Virus genome (UHGV): UHGV-0095853
Direction: 5' to 3' (one strand)
DNA: 35,246 bases
DNA from: a virus
The notes beneath the pieces were generated by a model, which did no database searches, was not told the origin of the DNA, and saw only the letters and a program-made list of their open reading frames with translations. Shown here one piece after another: positions 2,588 to 35,246 of this stretch. Position 1 is the stretch's first letter, and every line of letters begins with the position of its first letter. A program made the translations under genes and the position numbers.

Positions 2588-2631
2588 CCAATTGTGTTAG
2601 AAAATTCTATTCAATTATCTAACACAATTGG
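2588..2631. promoter_or_regulatory. Perfect 14-bp inverted repeat (CCAATTGTGTTAGA / TCTAACACAATTGG, 16-bp spacer) ending 7 nt before the rdgC start codon
   Basis: Read directly; arms carry the recurrent TGTGTTAGA operator core; not followed by a U-run so not a terminator. Confidence 0.5.
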
Positions 2632-2640
2632 ATGTGTTTT

Positions 2641-3294
2641 CTATCCCTTCTTGAAATCAAAGTTGCTTGCGATAGCCTGGAAGGTGCCTCCAGCCTTGAA
2701 ATCAATATTTTCGTCGGCTGTCACAGTAATGTTTTTGCCATTAACGCTGATGTTATCGGCTGATTTGACGTTAACACTCCCTCCCGCATTCACTACTACA
2801 TCAGCCGGACCAATGATGTATATCTGCCCTGATTCATTCATTCCAATCCTTGAGCCTGCTGCCGTATTCGCTATTTCATATCCACCGCCAGCCGTTCGCA
2901 CTTCGAGCACATTGTTGCGGTGAATCACGAAATCTTTTGTCGCCGAAAATTGCGGGCGGGGAGGCGCTCCGTCTACTTCTGGTGGCGTCCAGCCGCTACC
3001 ATTGCCTGACGCCTCCGGCGCGACGTTTGGTACTCCGCCAGGCGCATCCTGAGCTGCGCCAACTATCATTGGGCGTCTGGTATCAATTCGACCATTAACA
3101 TCCAGATAAGGAAACTCTACCCATACCAGGTCGCCTTTTACTGTAGGTACAAACGCGTTACCTATGGGTAACAGGTATTCTGCCCAGGGTAGATCGTCAT
3201 CAGGAACGCCATTCCAGTCTGGTAAAACACGGACCTGAGCACGCATAAGCCCTGCCGGGTGCACAGTTCCAACAATTTGCGCTCTACGCTTCAT
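2641..3294 (-). CDS. Phage protein of unknown function; N-terminal OB-fold-like region and C-terminal Gly/Asn-rich beta-repeat resembling gpV/gp45-type baseplate spikes (tentative)
   Basis: VRVLPDWNG..LPWAE..VKGDLVWVEF pattern then VNAGGSVNVKSADNISVNGKNITV repeats; ATG overlaps upstream stop (ATGA). Confidence 0.55.
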   Translation of the reverse strand: MKRRAQIVGTVHPAGLMRAQVRVLPDWNGVPDDDLPWAEYLLPIGNAFVPTVKGDLVWVEFPYLDVNGRIDTRRPMIVGAAQDAPGGVPNVAPEASGNGSGWTPPEVDGAPPRPQFSATKDFVIHRNNVLEVRTAGGGYEIANTAAGSRIGMNESGQIYIIGPADVVVNAGGSVNVKSADNISVNGKNITVTADENIDFKAGGTFQAIASNFDFKKG

Positions 3295-4271
3295 TTGTTC
3301 GGCACTCCCAATATCATTCGTGTTGTGTAGCCTACGCGGTCTTCAAAGTGCGCAACATTTTTTACTATCAGCTTACGGGGCATTGATTCATCAATGCGGT
3401 TTTCCTGGTCATAGCGGTATACGATAATCTCTATCACCATCCCCGGTTTTATATCAGGATTGCCTGCGACTTCTATATCCATTTTGGGGACGAGAGACAG
3501 CTGCATATTGCGAAGAGTTTCCATATCAGAGTCGGATATATAACGCACTGGGAGTGAGCTATCGCCATATTCGACGTAGCCATCGGTCATGGAATACCCA
3601 ACAAAACGATATTGATTCTTTGCTGTTGTCGCATGTTCCTGTTGGAGTAGGCGCATTTTGGACAAAGTGTATTCTGCTTTAGGGTTATTCCCCTCGTAGG
3701 TAAATGATGGCGTTTGCTTCATCAGATCAGCCAGGGTGTAAAAGTTAAATTCCCCCCGGCATACCCAACATAATGCACCTTTGTCTCGCGCTATCTCCGA
3801 AAGCATTTTTGACGGTTTGTCACCGGCATTCAGATGATATGTAACTGCGCGTTTTAGCACGCTGCTGGTAATTTTAAGCTTGCCGGAATATGCCTTGAAT
3901 ATAGCGTCTGGTGTTTTGTTGGTATGTAAATTTGTGCGCGGGGAGGGGATCTTAAACCTGCGCACGTCTTCACTGACAGCAATAACGGTAACAACATCAC
4001 CAGCCAGCATTGCAGACGTAACAAAGAAATCTGTTTTAAAAGTGCCTGCATTACCGTTTGGATCGCCCATTTCAGCCACCAGCGATGCACCGTATTTGGC
4101 TTTCCAGTCATCAATTACGGTGCCGGTAGCGTCATGAATTTCCAGTTTTAGCAAAGGGGCTTTGAGGCTGGTTTTTTCTACATATACTGCGGTAAAAATC
4201 CAGTCTCGTGGCACTTTGTTATCGTTAATGAGCACTGACTGTAGAAAATATTGTTGTAACTCCTGGGCCAC
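3291..4271 (-). CDS. Hypothetical protein (326 aa)
   Basis: Long ORF, GTG start 4 nt after upstream stop, co-oriented in a 4-gene operon. Confidence 0.6.
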   Translation of the reverse strand: MAQELQQYFLQSVLINDNKVPRDWIFTAVYVEKTSLKAPLLKLEIHDATGTVIDDWKAKYGASLVAEMGDPNGNAGTFKTDFFVTSAMLAGDVVTVIAVSEDVRRFKIPSPRTNLHTNKTPDAIFKAYSGKLKITSSVLKRAVTYHLNAGDKPSKMLSEIARDKGALCWVCRGEFNFYTLADLMKQTPSFTYEGNNPKAEYTLSKMRLLQQEHATTAKNQYRFVGYSMTDGYVEYGDSSLPVRYISDSDMETLRNMQLSLVPKMDIEVAGNPDIKPGMVIEIIVYRYDQENRIDESMPRKLIVKNVAHFEDRVGYTTRMILGVPNK

Positions 4272-4274
4272 TTA

Positions 4275-5042
4275 TCACCCCATAGATATCGAGGTTTCGG
4301 TAATAATACGTTTTGCGTCCAACTCCCATGCTGTGATCACGTCTGCAATCACACTTATCGGCGCTTGTGTGGCATAAATACGCTCTTCTCCAATTGGTGC
4401 TGAAACATCCGTAAAGCCGACTTCTTTGGCATCCTGTATCGAGCAAATCAGCGGGACCGGGACACGAACAAGGTGAGTGGTTGCTTCAAATTGTGTACCT
4501 GTCATCAGGCGAAGCCGTGCGCCCAGCGAATTACACATCAGACTCATGGTCGCTTTATCAGTTGCCATTAACGTAACGTCATACGTCAGAATGGCCTGGG
4601 TGTATTCCAGTTCTGCTAAAGGCATTCCGGTATCCGGTTCGCAAAAACTGGCTACTTTTTTGCGGTCAATCTGCTGATCATCGTTGATATAATTGATATC
4701 CATATTGCGTGAGATATTGACCAGGGGGAGAGCATCCCGGTTAATGTTCTGGTTTTCAGGTTTTCTCCCTTGCCCGGTATTTGCGCGACGAACTGCTTTA
4801 AGAAACTCGATCGCATTGTCGAAACGGGCCACATAGACACGCTCTGCTGGTGGACGATTCAGGAATGACGCAAAGCGTTTTTCTTCCGGCGCGGGGGCCA
4901 CCAGTAAGATATCAGAAAAAATGTTGCTGATTAGCGTCGCAAACGCGTTATCCACGTTTTCAAAGCCCGTGGTCTGGAATTTTCCTGTGCGTGAGGTTTG
5001 CCATTCACCTGTTCGTGCCAGGAGGGTTTTATTTGAAGTCAT
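4275..5042 (-). CDS. Hypothetical protein (255 aa)
   Basis: Long ORF with ATG overlapping upstream stop (ATGA). Confidence 0.6.
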   Translation of the reverse strand: MTSNKTLLARTGEWQTSRTGKFQTTGFENVDNAFATLISNIFSDILLVAPAPEEKRFASFLNRPPAERVYVARFDNAIEFLKAVRRANTGQGRKPENQNINRDALPLVNISRNMDINYINDDQQIDRKKVASFCEPDTGMPLAELEYTQAILTYDVTLMATDKATMSLMCNSLGARLRLMTGTQFEATTHLVRVPVPLICSIQDAKEVGFTDVSAPIGEERIYATQAPISVIADVITAWELDAKRIITETSISMG

Positions 5043-33055: not shown

Positions 33056-33438
33056 GATAAGCGAACGACGTGTTTTACCTTAGCGATCCACTTACCACGT
33101 GAGTTATTAATTACGGCCTGCGCCACCTTTAAGCTGACTTCAAAATCAGCCTTACGACCATCAGAATCCACCAGCGTTGCACCGTCTATTTCCGGCAGGC
33201 TTAAATAATCCTGTTCTACCTCTAATGGCATTGACGGCTCTCTGAATGGTGTCAATTGCCGAGCTTTCCAGATAAAGCGAACTCTCAATCCCCTATAAGC
33301 CATTACCATGTAGCCTGTTATCGTGCTCTTATGGCCTGCATCAGTACGCGCAGCATTACACGATACAATCTTACAGGTGACGATATTCCACTCCACATTG
33401 GAGACTTCGTGAATGCTTAATTTTGTTGTCTCGTACAT
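33046..33438 (-). CDS. Hypothetical protein (130 aa)
   Basis: ATG overlapping upstream stop. Confidence 0.5.
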   Translation of the reverse strand: MYETTKLSIHEVSNVEWNIVTCKIVSCNAARTDAGHKSTITGYMVMAYRGLRVRFIWKARQLTPFREPSMPLEVEQDYLSLPEIDGATLVDSDGRKADFEVSLKVAQAVINNSRGKWIAKVKHVVRLSRW

Positions 33439-34013
33439 CAGAATGCCTCCCAGTCAGTTGCGATAATATCCACGCCAGTTGCGAACCAGTCTGTCTGCGC
33501 CTGTAAATCCCCATTCATCATTACCAGGCGAGGCATAACCATCACATCGCACCCTTCCACAATATCGAATGCCTCTTCCGGCAAGAATTCGAAGAGCTTT
33601 TCTTTGCTGCCAATGCTGCCACGGAACATCGATAAATAGCTCCCTTTAGGCCATGATGCCCGGCGGGCATCCAGCCCCTTCATCATCCAGAACATGGCGG
33701 CAGAAAAATTGATGTTCTTTTTGGCGATGAAAACATTATTGGCTTCTGTTTGCTTCAGAAACTTAATTAGCCTTGCCATCGACTCGGATAACGCTACGTA
33801 TGGCTCATGATTGGCTGCGGACACGCTCACACCATGTAATCCAACACTGACTACCGTCATATCGCCGCTTTGAGCGGTTTCAATGTTGACACCTTTGCGA
33901 ACTAACGAGGCATAAAGTTCCTCTCGCTTTTGTGTCCAGCGTTCCCGCTGACCGATGAAGTCACTCAATATGAGATCTGCTTCTGCATACGCGTTATCGT
34001 TCGCCGTTAACAT
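33438..34013 (-). CDS. Hypothetical protein (191 aa), possibly with a divergent DUF2829-like C-terminal region
   Basis: FSAAMFWMMKGLDARRASWPKGSY ... DWFATGVDIIATDW loosely follows the DUF2829 Trp pattern. Confidence 0.45.
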   Translation of the reverse strand: MLTANDNAYAEADLILSDFIGQRERWTQKREELYASLVRKGVNIETAQSGDMTVVSVGLHGVSVSAANHEPYVALSESMARLIKFLKQTEANNVFIAKKNINFSAAMFWMMKGLDARRASWPKGSYLSMFRGSIGSKEKLFEFLPEEAFDIVEGCDVMVMPRLVMMNGDLQAQTDWFATGVDIIATDWEAF

Positions 34014-34466
34014 AACGTCTCCTTTTTACACGCGCGACCATCCCTCGGTTAAACCGATAGAGATGTCGAAACTTCGTATTAATTAAGGGTTACAGCCTGA
34101 GCGGCTATATGATGAATTGAAAGGAGTTGTGGCGGTGGTGCCTCCACCTGCCAGGTTAGCCACTCCTGGCGACGTCACTTATCAGAACGTAGTGAATGAA
34201 AATGGCTTCGTCACGAGCGCATAGCCGCAATTACCACAACGGAAACGGCGCTCACGCTAATTAAACGCCTTTTCCTGTTGTGCGCCGTACTCTTCCGGCT
34301 GTCACACCGAATCGCCAGGATGGTGAGTCCTCGGTCCGACGATATGAACGGGGCTTGCACATTCCGGCTACCTGGTTTGTTGCCTGAGCTAGGGGAAAAG
34401 GTAACCCCTTTAACGTCACCAGACCGCTAACGACGCATGTGCCTTACGCCGTGTTACAACCAAATA

Positions 34467-34542
34467 TGGTGGCCCCTACCGGACTTGAACCGGTGACCGT
34501 GCGATTATGAGTCGCCAGCTCTAACCACTGAGCTAAAGGGCC
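34467..34542 (-). tRNA. tRNA with CAU anticodon, closest to tRNA-Ile2 (ileX/ileY type, lysidine-modified)
   Basis: GGCCCTTTAGCTCAGTGGTTAGAGCTGGCGACTCATAATCGCACGGTCACCGGTTCAAGTCCGGTAGGGGCCACCA; about 10 differences from E. coli ileX as recalled. Confidence 0.8.
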
Positions 34543-34551
34543 AGATTACTG

Positions 34552-34680
34552 TTAATTCCGCTTACGCTTTTTGCCAGAACCGCGTAAGGCTTTTGCCGCT
34601 TGCTCGACCCCATATGCAACCACCAGCAGAAATAAAAATGTCCAACCAGGGTTCTTATCGGCAAAGGCCCAAAAATCCAT
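34552..34680 (-). CDS. Possible small membrane protein (42 aa)
   Basis: MDFWAFADKNPGWTFLFLLVVAYGVEQAAKALRGSGKKRKRN; one hydrophobic helix then basic tail; weak RBS. Confidence 0.3.
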   Translation of the reverse strand: MDFWAFADKNPGWTFLFLLVVAYGVEQAAKALRGSGKKRKRN

Positions 34681-34954
34681 CACTTGCAGCTACCTTTTAA
34701 GACAAAACGCCATTGCTGTTAGATTGCGGTGCCGGGTGCCTCCCGGTGACGTTAACCAGTTAACAATTAACGCCGGGATGTTTGACTTAACTATTGAGGA
34801 AAATTGTTTTAACTGTTCCGCGTGCGCTTAGCCGCATTCACCGCAATGGTAAGAGCACTTGGCTGGCTGGGCGGCGATGACGCCTGTACGCATTTGGTGA
34901 TCCGGTTCTGCTTCCGGCATTCGCTTAATTAGCCAAATACTCTTAACGTTGCGC

Positions 34955-35041
34955 TGGCGGAGAGTAATGGAATCGAACCATCATCGCTTGCGCAATGGGA
35001 CGGTTTTCAAGACCGCTTGAGCACCATGCTCCCTACTCTCC
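34955..35041 (-). tRNA. tRNA-like gene, class II (long variable arm), apparent anticodon UGA (Ser), atypical D-arm
   Basis: 7-bp acceptor stem GGAGAGT/ACTCTCC, T-loop TTCGATT, anticodon loop CTTGAAA, 3' GCCA. Confidence 0.45.
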
Positions 35042-35246
35042 GGCCGTTGTGGTGGCCGGTACTGAATCTCCGGCATACGGTGCAGCCAATTAGGACTACG
35101 GACGATCACCGCTCGCGAAAGGGAAGGTTTGCGGCCGCATTTCCCTAACATCCAAGAAAGCTATCGCATCAGTCTGCGAATCCACCACAACGTTGAGAAC
35201 ACTGGTTGTCACGCTGCAACGCAACATTTATTCGTAGATTGGGATA

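Follow-up and report, generated by a model that had tools for sequence, protein, structure and literature searches.

A 35,246-nt DNA sequence from the virus genome UHGV-0095853 (the window) carries, between positions 34014 and 35041, two tRNA genes and a 453-nt spacer (34014-34466). The structured stretch in the spacer is the valuable part of this locus, both tRNAs being of types already described (trnI of P1 and the (8/4) tRNA-Ser). We found that it encodes an RNA of approximately 230 nt, one member of an extensive family of structured RNAs in phages that appears not to have been described, and that the 453-nt stretch is modular, combining this RNA with an STnc100-like domain and a tad2 leader. 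We hold with high confidence that the tRNAs are real, that one of them has an 8/4 fold, and that the structured RNA family is real and conserved; the whole explanation, in which this description is joined to a cis-acting leader mechanism, we hold at a probability of roughly 0.55. A preliminary description of the locus had rightly recorded tRNAs and stems but overlooked the minus-strand orientation, which is that of every feature of the 34014-35041 cluster, the STnc100-like RNA at 34725-34845, a 43-amino-acid (aa) open reading frame (ORF) at 34552-34683, and the modularity. Its "several stems" in 34014-34466 exist, but the phrase understates what is a discrete, widely conserved structured RNA accompanied by an STnc100-like domain and a leader. 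The elements of the 230-nt RNA are as follows.

34234..34462, minus strand: conserved structured RNA core, defined by homologues and covariation
34451-34447/34435-34431, minus strand: helix H1, loop UAAGGCACAUG
GCACAU 34442-34437 / AUGUGC 34362-34357, minus strand: candidate pseudoknot PK1, invariant complementarity
34427-34419/34375-34367, minus strand: helix H2, covarying
34411-34391 and 34353-34329, minus strand: variable hairpins
34331-34317, minus strand: helix H4, covarying
CACC 34325-34322 / GGUG 34308-34305, minus strand: candidate pseudoknot PK2, invariant complementarity
34299-34284, minus strand: helix H5, loop GAAGAG
CACAAC 34282-34277 / GUUGUGG 34240-34234, minus strand: closing helix of the 3' domain

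The alignment of homologues has sharp boundaries, unrelated flanks and compensatory changes, and conservation of structure is clear for 34462..34234. An explicit fold was tested on 94 representatives sharing <86% identity (alignment A3), to which the following pair counts refer. H1 combines an invariant loop, UAUGGCACAUG, with a pair (12:24) that changes in concert (AU66/GC26), and H2, which closes a variable hairpin, does likewise at pair 38:100 (CG84/UA8). Two pairs of H4 (CG78/GC11 and AU53/UG31/CG5) and two of H5 (UA80/CG10 and CG76/GC7) behave in the same way, the GAAGAG loop of H5 being conserved. Over the whole fold, 95.1% of cells are paired, compared with 27-42% when the partners are slid by 1-3 columns, and covariation is 0.174 versus 0.091 in shuffled alignments, the observed value being reached in 0/500 shuffles. 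In folding of 34014-34466 against shuffled sequences, the minus sense gave z = -2.86 and the plus sense z = -1.43, and the many G-U pairs indicate that the functional strand is that of the tRNAs. We considered, and rejected, a protein-coding gene concealed in the spacer: ORFs reach at most 52 aa, the variable hairpins contain indels whose lengths are not divisible by three, the conserved 20-nt blocks lack a wobble pattern, and the "hypothetical proteins" annotated in mEp460 and elsewhere lie on the opposite strand. The preliminary statement that 34014-34466 has no ORF holds only approximately: ORFs of 31-52 aa are present on both strands, none of them being conserved as coding.

Two further pairings are suggested by complementarity, between GCACAU in the H1 loop and AUGUGC (PK1) and between CACC in the H4 loop and GGUG (PK2). 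All of these segments are invariant, and as they never vary, the pseudoknots are put forward as candidates only. RNAalifold, run on a 17-sequence alignment, predicted the GCACAU/AUGUGC pairing as a nested long-range helix in place of the local H1. Since pair 12:24 of H1 covaries, we retain H1 in the model beside the long-range pairing, the latter as a candidate, unproven pseudoknot. Two pairings, CAAC(G)/(C)GUUG and GAGAGCA/UGCUCUC, close the 3' domain, the second reading GAGCGCA/UGCGCUC in a Stenotrophomonas phage. The domain accommodates lineage-specific inserts, some with T-arm-like hairpins: those of SPN1S (at about locus positions 700-830) and of locus L180 contain GGUUCAAUUCC and GUUCGAUUC (also CUGGUUCAAUUCCAG and GGUCAGUUCGAUUCGGAC), which could be either tRNA-derived sequence or T-loop motifs. 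In the window, the central GUUGUGG could pair with either of the flanking CACAAC segments.

A distant-mode search recovered the first ~180 nt after the tRNA-Ile at 78-95% identity in P1, RCS47, Stx2a- and Stx2c-converting phages, mEp460 and phiV10-type podophages, and a shorter part at 75-80% identity in SPN1S, Enterobacter phage Tyrion, and Klebsiella and Stenotrophomonas phages; homologues are also present in P7, D6 and the Stx2 lambdoids. Their settings are unrelated, for example, the terminase-portal gap in phiV10, a site beside the repressor in mEp460, and one near the genome end in SopranoGao, and annotation at these sites is almost always absent. Recurrence in unrelated phages with unrelated flanks led us to dismiss the idea of a tRNA trailer specific to P1 and D6. 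An invariant 22-mer and a degenerate 5' motif were used to scan IMG/VR (searched twice) and metagenomes, including those of soil and gut; every scan returned at least 120 loci, and in all >350 loci were retrieved from these sources. Within a species-representative genome set, the RNA was found in Kluyvera and Escherichia only. By megablast, the lambdoid version occurs in 1562 of 5426 complete E. coli genomes (~29%), at 1391 chromosomal and 550 plasmid places, and among the matches listed there is no annotated feature apart from one 32-nt stretch marked CRISPR. This stretch (NZ_CP027440.1, 1868888-1868919, E. coli 2012C-4502) is a 100% match to positions 36-67 of the Stx2c-phage version, i.e., the H1/H2 region, approximately window 34445..34414; presumably it is a spacer, with the host thus targeting a conserved phage element.

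Searches of Rfam 15 gave no match to the window version at E<=5 or to the phiV10, Stx2c and mEp460 versions at E<=1, and the T-box, riboswitch, ribozyme, GOLLD, ROOL, C4 and IsrK models of that release did not match the 230-nt RNA. Four signature sequence strings were absent from the papers searched. Identity with the Pas sRNAs (PasA-D) was dismissed on their described genomic contexts, the sequences not being directly compared: PasB is encoded in the structural-gene operon, PasA and PasC by esterase, holin and lysozyme genes, and PasD by Q, and all four are confined to Escherichia and Shigella (Zhu, Shabalina & Storz 2026, preprint 10.64898/2026.05.13.724894). The 230-nt RNA instead follows repressor genes or lies beside tRNAs, and it extends beyond Escherichia. 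In the Stx2c phage and mEp460, C4 antisense and IsrK-type RNAs (Rfam, 80-84 and 60-67 bits) are present ~2 kb away in the antirepressor region; they are unrelated to the 230-nt RNA and show that these two phages carry P1-type C4/Ant immunity modules.

The window itself derives from a phage-plasmid of the P1 family, of the D6/P7 type. This assignment follows from a megablast search with 33400-35246: Escherichia phage D6 aligns with 90% of the query (94% identity), ~95 E. coli plasmids, 88-120 kb in size, cover >=80% of it (94.6-99.9% identity among the matches listed), and P7 and P1 match in part. Gene order shows that the tRNA/RNA cluster is the distal part of an early minus-strand operon that is the counterpart of the P1 ban operon, for which the P1 record annotates the promoter P1ban and the C1 operator Op72. 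The P1 order is a dicF-like region, tRNA-Asn, tRNA-Thr, (plp and upl on the opposite strand), tciA, tciB, tciC, tRNA-Ile and ban. That of the near-identical plasmid pEP91B-2 is tRNA-Arg, tRNA-Thr, tRNA-Ser, a small ORF, tRNA-Ile, a Tad2-family gene, two hypothetical ORFs, pacA and terminase. In the window we find tRNA-Ser(UGA), the STnc100-like RNA, a tciC-like ORF, tRNA-Ile(CAU), the structured RNA, tad2, orf5, lpa, pacA and pacB. Relatives have a dicF-like element, tRNA-Arg or tRNA-Asn, and tRNA-Thr upstream; the window edge falls immediately short of their Thr and Arg tRNAs, and the counterpart of the P1 C1 operator lies beyond it. A literature search on the P1 ban operon returned no match. 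As the P1 operon is controlled by the C1 repressor, the pointer to induced lysogens in the preliminary description was apt.

Across the family, the setting of the 230-nt RNA points to early transcription. In 24/77 representatives, the closest ORF upstream encodes a Peptidase_S24/HTH (CI/LexA-type) repressor, and upstream ORFs are on the same strand as the RNA in 57/77. Downstream genes are always on the same strand, being ban in P1, tad2 in the window and gp66-like genes elsewhere (Sf6 gp66-like in 10/73, Tad2-like in 2/73 and DnaB in 2/73). Promoter-like sites whose -10 hexamer ends 60-70 nt before the GGCACAUG motif were found in 64 of 215 upstream regions, versus 22 when shuffled. In the Stx2c phage, the repressor ORF is followed by a terminator, a TTGACA-16-CATAAT promoter with a palindrome, and then the 230-nt RNA, with ~1 kb separating it from the nearest sizeable ATG ORF downstream. 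An excess of terminator-like hairpins (102/214 versus 39) is seen 300-450 nt downstream across the family. tRNA genes may also adjoin the RNA: tRNA-Arg(UCU) is the only tRNA found immediately 3' of it, sharing its strand and keeping a constant distance in 38/246 variants (e.g., phiV10, SPN1S, Kp711 and SJM3), and in the P1-likes, tRNA-Ile(CAU) is found immediately 5'. By these arrangements, the RNA in lambdoid prophages is positioned at the very beginning of early transcripts under repressor control, and in P1-likes it lies within the early operon governed by C1.

It is on account of this position that we favor the function of a cis-acting early-operon leader, an assignment that, taken by itself, is tentative and to which we give somewhat less than even odds. 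The RNA would act in cis during transcription, controlling elongation or termination or otherwise gating downstream expression, with its invariant loops offered to some conserved machine of the host, RNA polymerase for example. It would then be functionally analogous to, and not homologous with, the put RNAs of phage HK022. Given the tRNA genes and tRNA-like closing helices that flank them, the structured RNAs would probably also be cut from the polycistronic transcript by tRNA-processing enzymes, namely, RNase P, RNase E and 3' exonucleases. A more ambitious formulation, which we regard as possible but doubtful, is that these are a new class of double-pseudoknotted RNA, found in temperate and virulent phages of many proteobacteria, that either reprograms RNA polymerase in cis, as an RNA-only antitermination device unrelated to put that acts from the first ~250 nt of early transcripts, or senses or binds tRNA-Arg(UCU) via its AGA loop.

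Several observations count against the leader function. The cis-regulatory role is a best guess that has position as its basis, and invariance leaves covariation speaking neither for nor against either of the two candidate pseudoknots. In phiV10, the RNA is antisense to the neighboring structural genes. A search of the whole HK022 genome with the family profile (nhmmer, E<=10) gave no match, nor was a signature motif present in it, and the 230-nt RNA is ~3 times longer than HK022 put. The downstream enrichment of terminators is equally compatible with a free-standing noncoding RNA (ncRNA) gene, and the adjoining tRNAs, whether tRNA-Arg(UCU) or the tRNA-Ile of P1-likes, fit a processed, stable, trans-acting RNA at least equally well.

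Such a trans-acting ncRNA is the main alternative, and we consider it possible, though not probable. It would be released by RNase P and 3' tRNA-processing enzymes, with the STnc100-like domains released likewise, and would bind a factor of the host or of the phage, for instance as a decoy or sponge with an anti-defence or translation-related effect. The maturation of P1 C4 RNA by RNase P provides a precedent. The junctions with tRNA genes, 3' in the 38 variants with tRNA-Arg(UCU) and 5' with tRNA-Ile(CAU) in the P1-likes, fit this reading better than a cis-acting leader; in phiV10 and locus L109, the 3' closing helix CAAC..GUUG even extends into the first tRNA bases, and the inserts of SPN1S and L180 bear the T-arm-like hairpins GGUUCAAUUCC and GUUCGAUUC. 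The terminator-like sites downstream likewise suggest a discrete transcription unit, and the neighboring gene in the window is the anti-defence gene tad2. Yet this link to anti-defence is a single neighboring gene, seen in 2/73 representatives, 208 of the 246 variants have no adjacent tRNA in the region scanned, no terminator directly follows the RNA in the window or in the Stx2c example, and no partner is known.

We also considered a riboswitch-like leader that senses a ligand or a tRNA and, more specifically, a T-box-like sensor of tRNA-Arg(UCU), in which the H5 loop GAAGAG would expose an AGA codon and invariant UGGC motifs could pair with a GCCA 3' end, so tuning the expression of early genes or of tRNA-Arg to AGA decoding. 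The architecture is of the riboswitch or ribozyme type, with invariant loop and junction nucleotides, covarying helices and candidate pseudoknots. The RNA is promoter proximal in leaders and specifically associated with tRNA-Arg(UCU) genes, AGA is found in the conserved H5 loop and is over-used in window genes, and UGGC is found in the H1 loop and after H4. Nevertheless, AGA and UGGC are 3- and 4-nt matches that could easily arise by chance, the H5 loop is unchanged in the P1-likes, where the neighbor is tRNA-Ile, no Rfam T-box or riboswitch model matches, and no expression platform in the form of an alternative terminator/anti-terminator was identified, though GUUGUGG could pair with either CACAAC. 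On balance, we judge a sensor improbable. Less probable still is a conserved stretch without a function of its own, either a hitch-hiking flank of mobile rare-codon tRNA cassettes or a DNA-level recombination or protein-binding site, which would account for the mosaic flanks and the linkage to tRNA-Ile(CAU) and tRNA-Arg(UCU) genes but not for blocks of >=20 nt that are invariant across phages of Enterobacteria and Stenotrophomonas and soil metagenomes, nor for the many copies, the majority, without an adjacent tRNA, nor for the compensatory changes in four helices and the strand-specific G-U pairs, which argue for selection on RNA structure rather than on DNA or a neutral flank.

The other features of the locus are the following.

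35041..34955, minus strand: tRNA-Ser(UGA) with an 8/4 cloverleaf (ARAGORN; covariation among 43 homologues)
34845..34725, minus strand: STnc100-like structured RNA domain (Rfam RF02076)
34552..34683, minus strand: ORF for a TciC-like small membrane peptide of 43 aa (N-terminal likeness and position)
34542..34467, minus strand: tRNA-Ile2-type gene, anticodon CAU (ARAGORN; Rfam tRNA, 64.7 bits)
34126..34233, minus strand: "module 2," a second STnc100-like domain (similarity to SJM3 and SopranoGao; by eye)
34014..34125, minus strand: 5' leader of tad2 with Shine-Dalgarno sequence AAGGAG at 34024-34019 (read from the sequence)
33438..34013, minus strand: Thoeris anti-defence Tad2-like gene, 191 aa (Pfam PF11195, E = 1.5e-9)

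The second tRNA-like gene of the preliminary description, said there to have a long variable arm, an apparent UGA anticodon and an atypical D arm, was placed by ARAGORN at 34955-35041 on the minus strand. Its acceptor stem has 8 bp and its T stem 4 bp; the D stem has 4-5 bp with a 3- to 5-nt loop, the variable arm has 6 bp with a GCAA loop, the discriminator is G, and CCA is encoded. tRNAscan-SE, on which we take PGAP tRNA calls to rely, does not reject it: PGAP labels it tRNA-Ser in nearly all listed plasmids and "tRNA-OTHER" in one, and this label, together with covarying stems, establishes the gene as real. The D6 record gives "AA not called by tRNAscan-SE," and P7 (NC_050152) has a 100% identical, unannotated copy (locus 4239-4325, minus strand). 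Apart from P7, homologues were found in SSU5-like Klebsiella phage-plasmids, rV5-like phages, T5-like and T4-like Klebsiella and Salmonella phages, and phages of Acinetobacter, Pseudomonas, Xanthomonas and Streptomyces, and a scan of IMG/VR added 41 distinct sequences.

What the preliminary description left unrecognized in this tRNA is the 8/4 architecture. In an alignment of 43 distinct sequences, the eighth acceptor pair varies without ever being broken (AU38/UA2/UG2/GC1), whereas the rival fifth T-stem pair (GU38/GC1) has an invariant G, shows no covariation and is broken in 4/43; the canonical 7/5 fold is thereby ruled out. The cloverleaf as a whole is 98.1% paired, with a covariation of 0.622 versus 0.154 shuffled, and the D stem covaries strongly. 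The best Rfam model is tRNA-Sec (RF01852), at 46.6 bits versus a gathering score of 47, a result in which the unusual D arm and the long variable arm are reflected. The gene shares with tRNA-Sec (selC) an extended acceptor stem, a long D stem and a long variable arm. The tRNA-Sec acceptor branch, however, is 8/5, or 13 bp, and its anticodon UCA reads UGA, while the window tRNA has a 12-bp 8/4 branch and the anticodon UGA, which reads UCA; this anticodon and branch, along with the subthreshold score, exclude selC identity. The 12-bp (8+4) branch, tRNA-Sec-like D arm, long variable arm and discriminator G are those of the (8/4) tRNA-Ser, and from its sequence we assign the gene to this allo-tRNA class. 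The group was described from bacteriophages and proteobacteria (Mukai et al., Nucleic Acids Res 2017; PMC5389517), and the window tRNA has in common with it the 12-bp 8/4 branch, the long D stem with a small loop, the long variable arm, the discriminator G73, a serine anticodon and a phage origin. As its anticodon is a normal serine one, no recoding is implied.

Records of related tRNAs are uneven. Members of the 8/4 family are labeled "pseudogene" in other phage records (Klebsiella phage Boggle, locus 151-232; phage LL12, locus 340-391), and in LL12 a neighboring tRNA-Lys is flagged "isotype prediction inconsistent." In the D6 record, tRNA-Ser, tRNA-Thr and tRNA-Asn are on the strand opposite to their equivalents in the near-identical pEP91B-2 (tRNA-Ser, tRNA-Thr and tRNA-Arg), which suggests a strand error in the D6 tRNA features. 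Non-canonical phage tRNAs seem to be systematically misannotated.

The CAU tRNA, placed by ARAGORN at 34467-34542 on the minus strand, is identical to P1 trnI, so that the gene is already known; the P1 record describes it as "tRNA-ile2 (CAT) gene; 89 pct identical to ileX," and PGAP labels it tRNA-Ile in ~95 near-identical plasmids. The preliminary view of it as a phage copy resembling host tRNA-Ile2 therefore holds, while the figure of about 10 differences becomes 8 against the E. coli ileX sequence. By the same comparison, two T-stem pairs have changed in a compensatory manner (49:65, G-C to A-U; 51:63, U-A to C-G) and one acceptor pair has gone from C6-G67 to U6-G67, a pattern that looks like the one expected of a functional tRNA gene. 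The CAU cloverleaf and a sequence nearer to ileX than to Met tRNAs identify it as tRNA-Ile2 of the ileX type. The acceptor pairs C4-G69 and C5-G68, which we take to be TilS determinants, are retained, and the anticodon is presumably lysidine modified to read AUA. P1 trnI occupies the same slot, downstream of a tciC-type ORF; it is followed by a shorter version of the structured RNA and then ban, whereas in the window the structured RNA is followed by tad2. E. coli ileX and ileY and ileZ of Stx phages are related tRNA-Ile2 genes with the anticodon CAU in common.

Between the two tRNAs, 34845..34725 scores 47.0 bits against RF02076, equal to the gathering score and covering only model positions 31-147 of 206. 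The domain has a closing helix (UGCGGUG/CACCGCA), a first hairpin, AAUGCGGCUAAGCGC, and a terminal hairpin, CCGGG-AGGCA-CCCGG. It occupies the slot of the terB/tciA leader in P7 and D6, in which a sequence 98% identical to it stops 32 nt short of terB/tciA. STnc100, a family of prophage sRNAs, is related to PasD; the neighborhoods of PasA and PasC often include TerB genes, and STnc100 matches are abundant in those flanks (preprint 10.64898/2026.05.13.724894). The window domain shares the phage or prophage setting of the STnc100/PasD family. The terB-like tciA and tciB, present in P1, P7 and D6, are deleted in the window, where the STnc100-like leader is joined to the 43-aa ORF. The N terminus of the latter (MDFWAFADKNP) resembles that of P1 TciC (MGFWDFADKHP), and it lies in the same slot directly upstream of trnI; there was no match in Pfam, and the idea of a TciB remnant was dropped, as it has no similarity to TciB. 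Other plasmids of the group (e.g., NZ_CP047663) retain TerB and DUF3927 genes between the tRNAs, which marks the locus as a variable spot.

Module 2, downstream of the 230-nt RNA, is closed by GUUGUGG 34240-34234 / CCACAAC 34132-34126 and contains the hairpins GCCAGG/CCUGGC 34170-34150 and GGUGG-AGGCA-CCACC 34148-34134, the first of which is the GCCAGG/CCTGGC stem already seen in the preliminary description (34150-34155/34165-34170). Judged by eye, we infer that its layout, with a closing helix and an AGGCA-loop hairpin, mirrors that of the STnc100-like domain; against Rfam, 34233..34126 gave no score at E<=5. A stretch directly adjoining tRNA-Arg(UCU) in Klebsiella phage SJM3 shares 79% identity with it, and one in SopranoGao shares 73%; in these Klebsiella phages the GCCAGG/CCUGGC stem becomes GCCGG/CCGGC. 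The possibility that module 2 regularly accompanies the core was rejected: an AGGCACC hairpin lies downstream in 6/246 variants only, making the module lineage specific. In SopranoGao (locus ~2600-3200), there is a tandem series of domains closed by CACAAC...GUUGUGG, comprising the core 3' domain, an STnc100-like domain, a second such pair and a short hairpin domain, and the last domain is followed by a tRNA-like sequence, GUGUAGCUCAGGGUAGUAGAGCG..., that is not called by ARAGORN. This array suggests that the modules multiply and shuffle together with tRNA genes. The tad2 leader is conserved in D6-like elements only. The Tad2-like gene, whose product PGAP names "Thoeris anti-defense Tad2 family protein," is the protein gene that comes first after the RNA elements, in the slot that holds ban (a DnaB analogue) in P1, and is followed by orf5, lpa (PF25716, E = 1.9e-54), pacA and pacB. 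In D6-like elements, the tRNA/RNA cluster thus adjoins an anti-defence gene.

Codon usage offers a reason for carrying the tRNAs. In 33 long window ORFs, AUA, UCA, AGA and ACA occur at 12.5, 12.8, 6.9 and 13.4 per thousand, compared with ~4, ~7, ~2 and ~7 in E. coli K-12, a comparison weakened, and our explanation with it, by an uncurated ORF set and approximate reference frequencies. AUA makes up 21% of the Ile codons, in line with the earlier proposal that the CAU tRNA probably supplies AUA decoding. The over-used codons are those of the operon tRNAs (Ile-CAU, Ser-UGA, Thr-UGU and, putatively, the tRNA-Arg of relatives), from which we infer codon supply: upon derepression of the operon, the tRNAs would supply AUA and UCA decoding, and in relatives ACA and AGA decoding. 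Phage tRNAs are known to counter tRNA-cleaving defences, and the presence of tad2 in the same operon would fit tRNAs that mainly replace host tRNAs destroyed by anticodon nucleases rather than adjust codon supply; together with the hitch-hiking flank discussed above, we assign this explanation a very low probability.

The two tRNAs, though ordinary in function, call for correct annotation, the 8/4 tRNA-Ser being unannotated in P7, unassigned in D6, and a "pseudogene" or "tRNA-OTHER" elsewhere, and the 8/4 architecture is shown here to be common in well-known coliphage groups. The spacer is the more important result, in that an "empty" stretch of P1, of Stx-converting phages and of ~29% of complete E. 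coli genomes turns out to specify an RNA whose conservation is like that of a riboswitch or ribozyme and that has no match in Rfam 15. Should it prove to control early transcription, this would account for the read-through of long structured leaders in N-less lambdoid prophages and in the ban-type operon of P1; as a processed trans-acting RNA, it would be a new player in phage-host interaction, beside anti-defence genes. It occurs in the genetically tractable systems P1, P7, D6, phiV10 and mEp460.

To our knowledge, HK022 is the only phage with a proven RNA antiterminator. Its put RNAs are ~70 nt long with two stem-loops. Like them, the lambdoid copies of the 230-nt RNA lie immediately downstream of an operator-controlled early promoter beside the repressor gene, and the RNA is likewise structured with no protein partner encoded nearby. 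This promoter-proximal position in an early operon is not shared by the P1-likes and phiV10; unlike put, the 230-nt RNA has at least 6 helices and occurs also beside tRNA genes and in non-lambdoid phages. With no homologue in HK022 by the genome profile search, there is no homology with putL/putR, and the RNA falls outside the put family. GOLLD, ROOL and the stable RNAs of the T4 tRNA cluster (species 1 and 2) are phage or prophage RNAs with elaborate conserved structures that are often found beside tRNA genes. The 230-nt RNA, which has no Rfam match to GOLLD or ROOL, is much smaller than these and has proteobacterial hosts, and it has in common with GOLLD, ROOL and T4 species 1 and 2 a phage location, adjacency to tRNA genes and an elaborate conserved structure.

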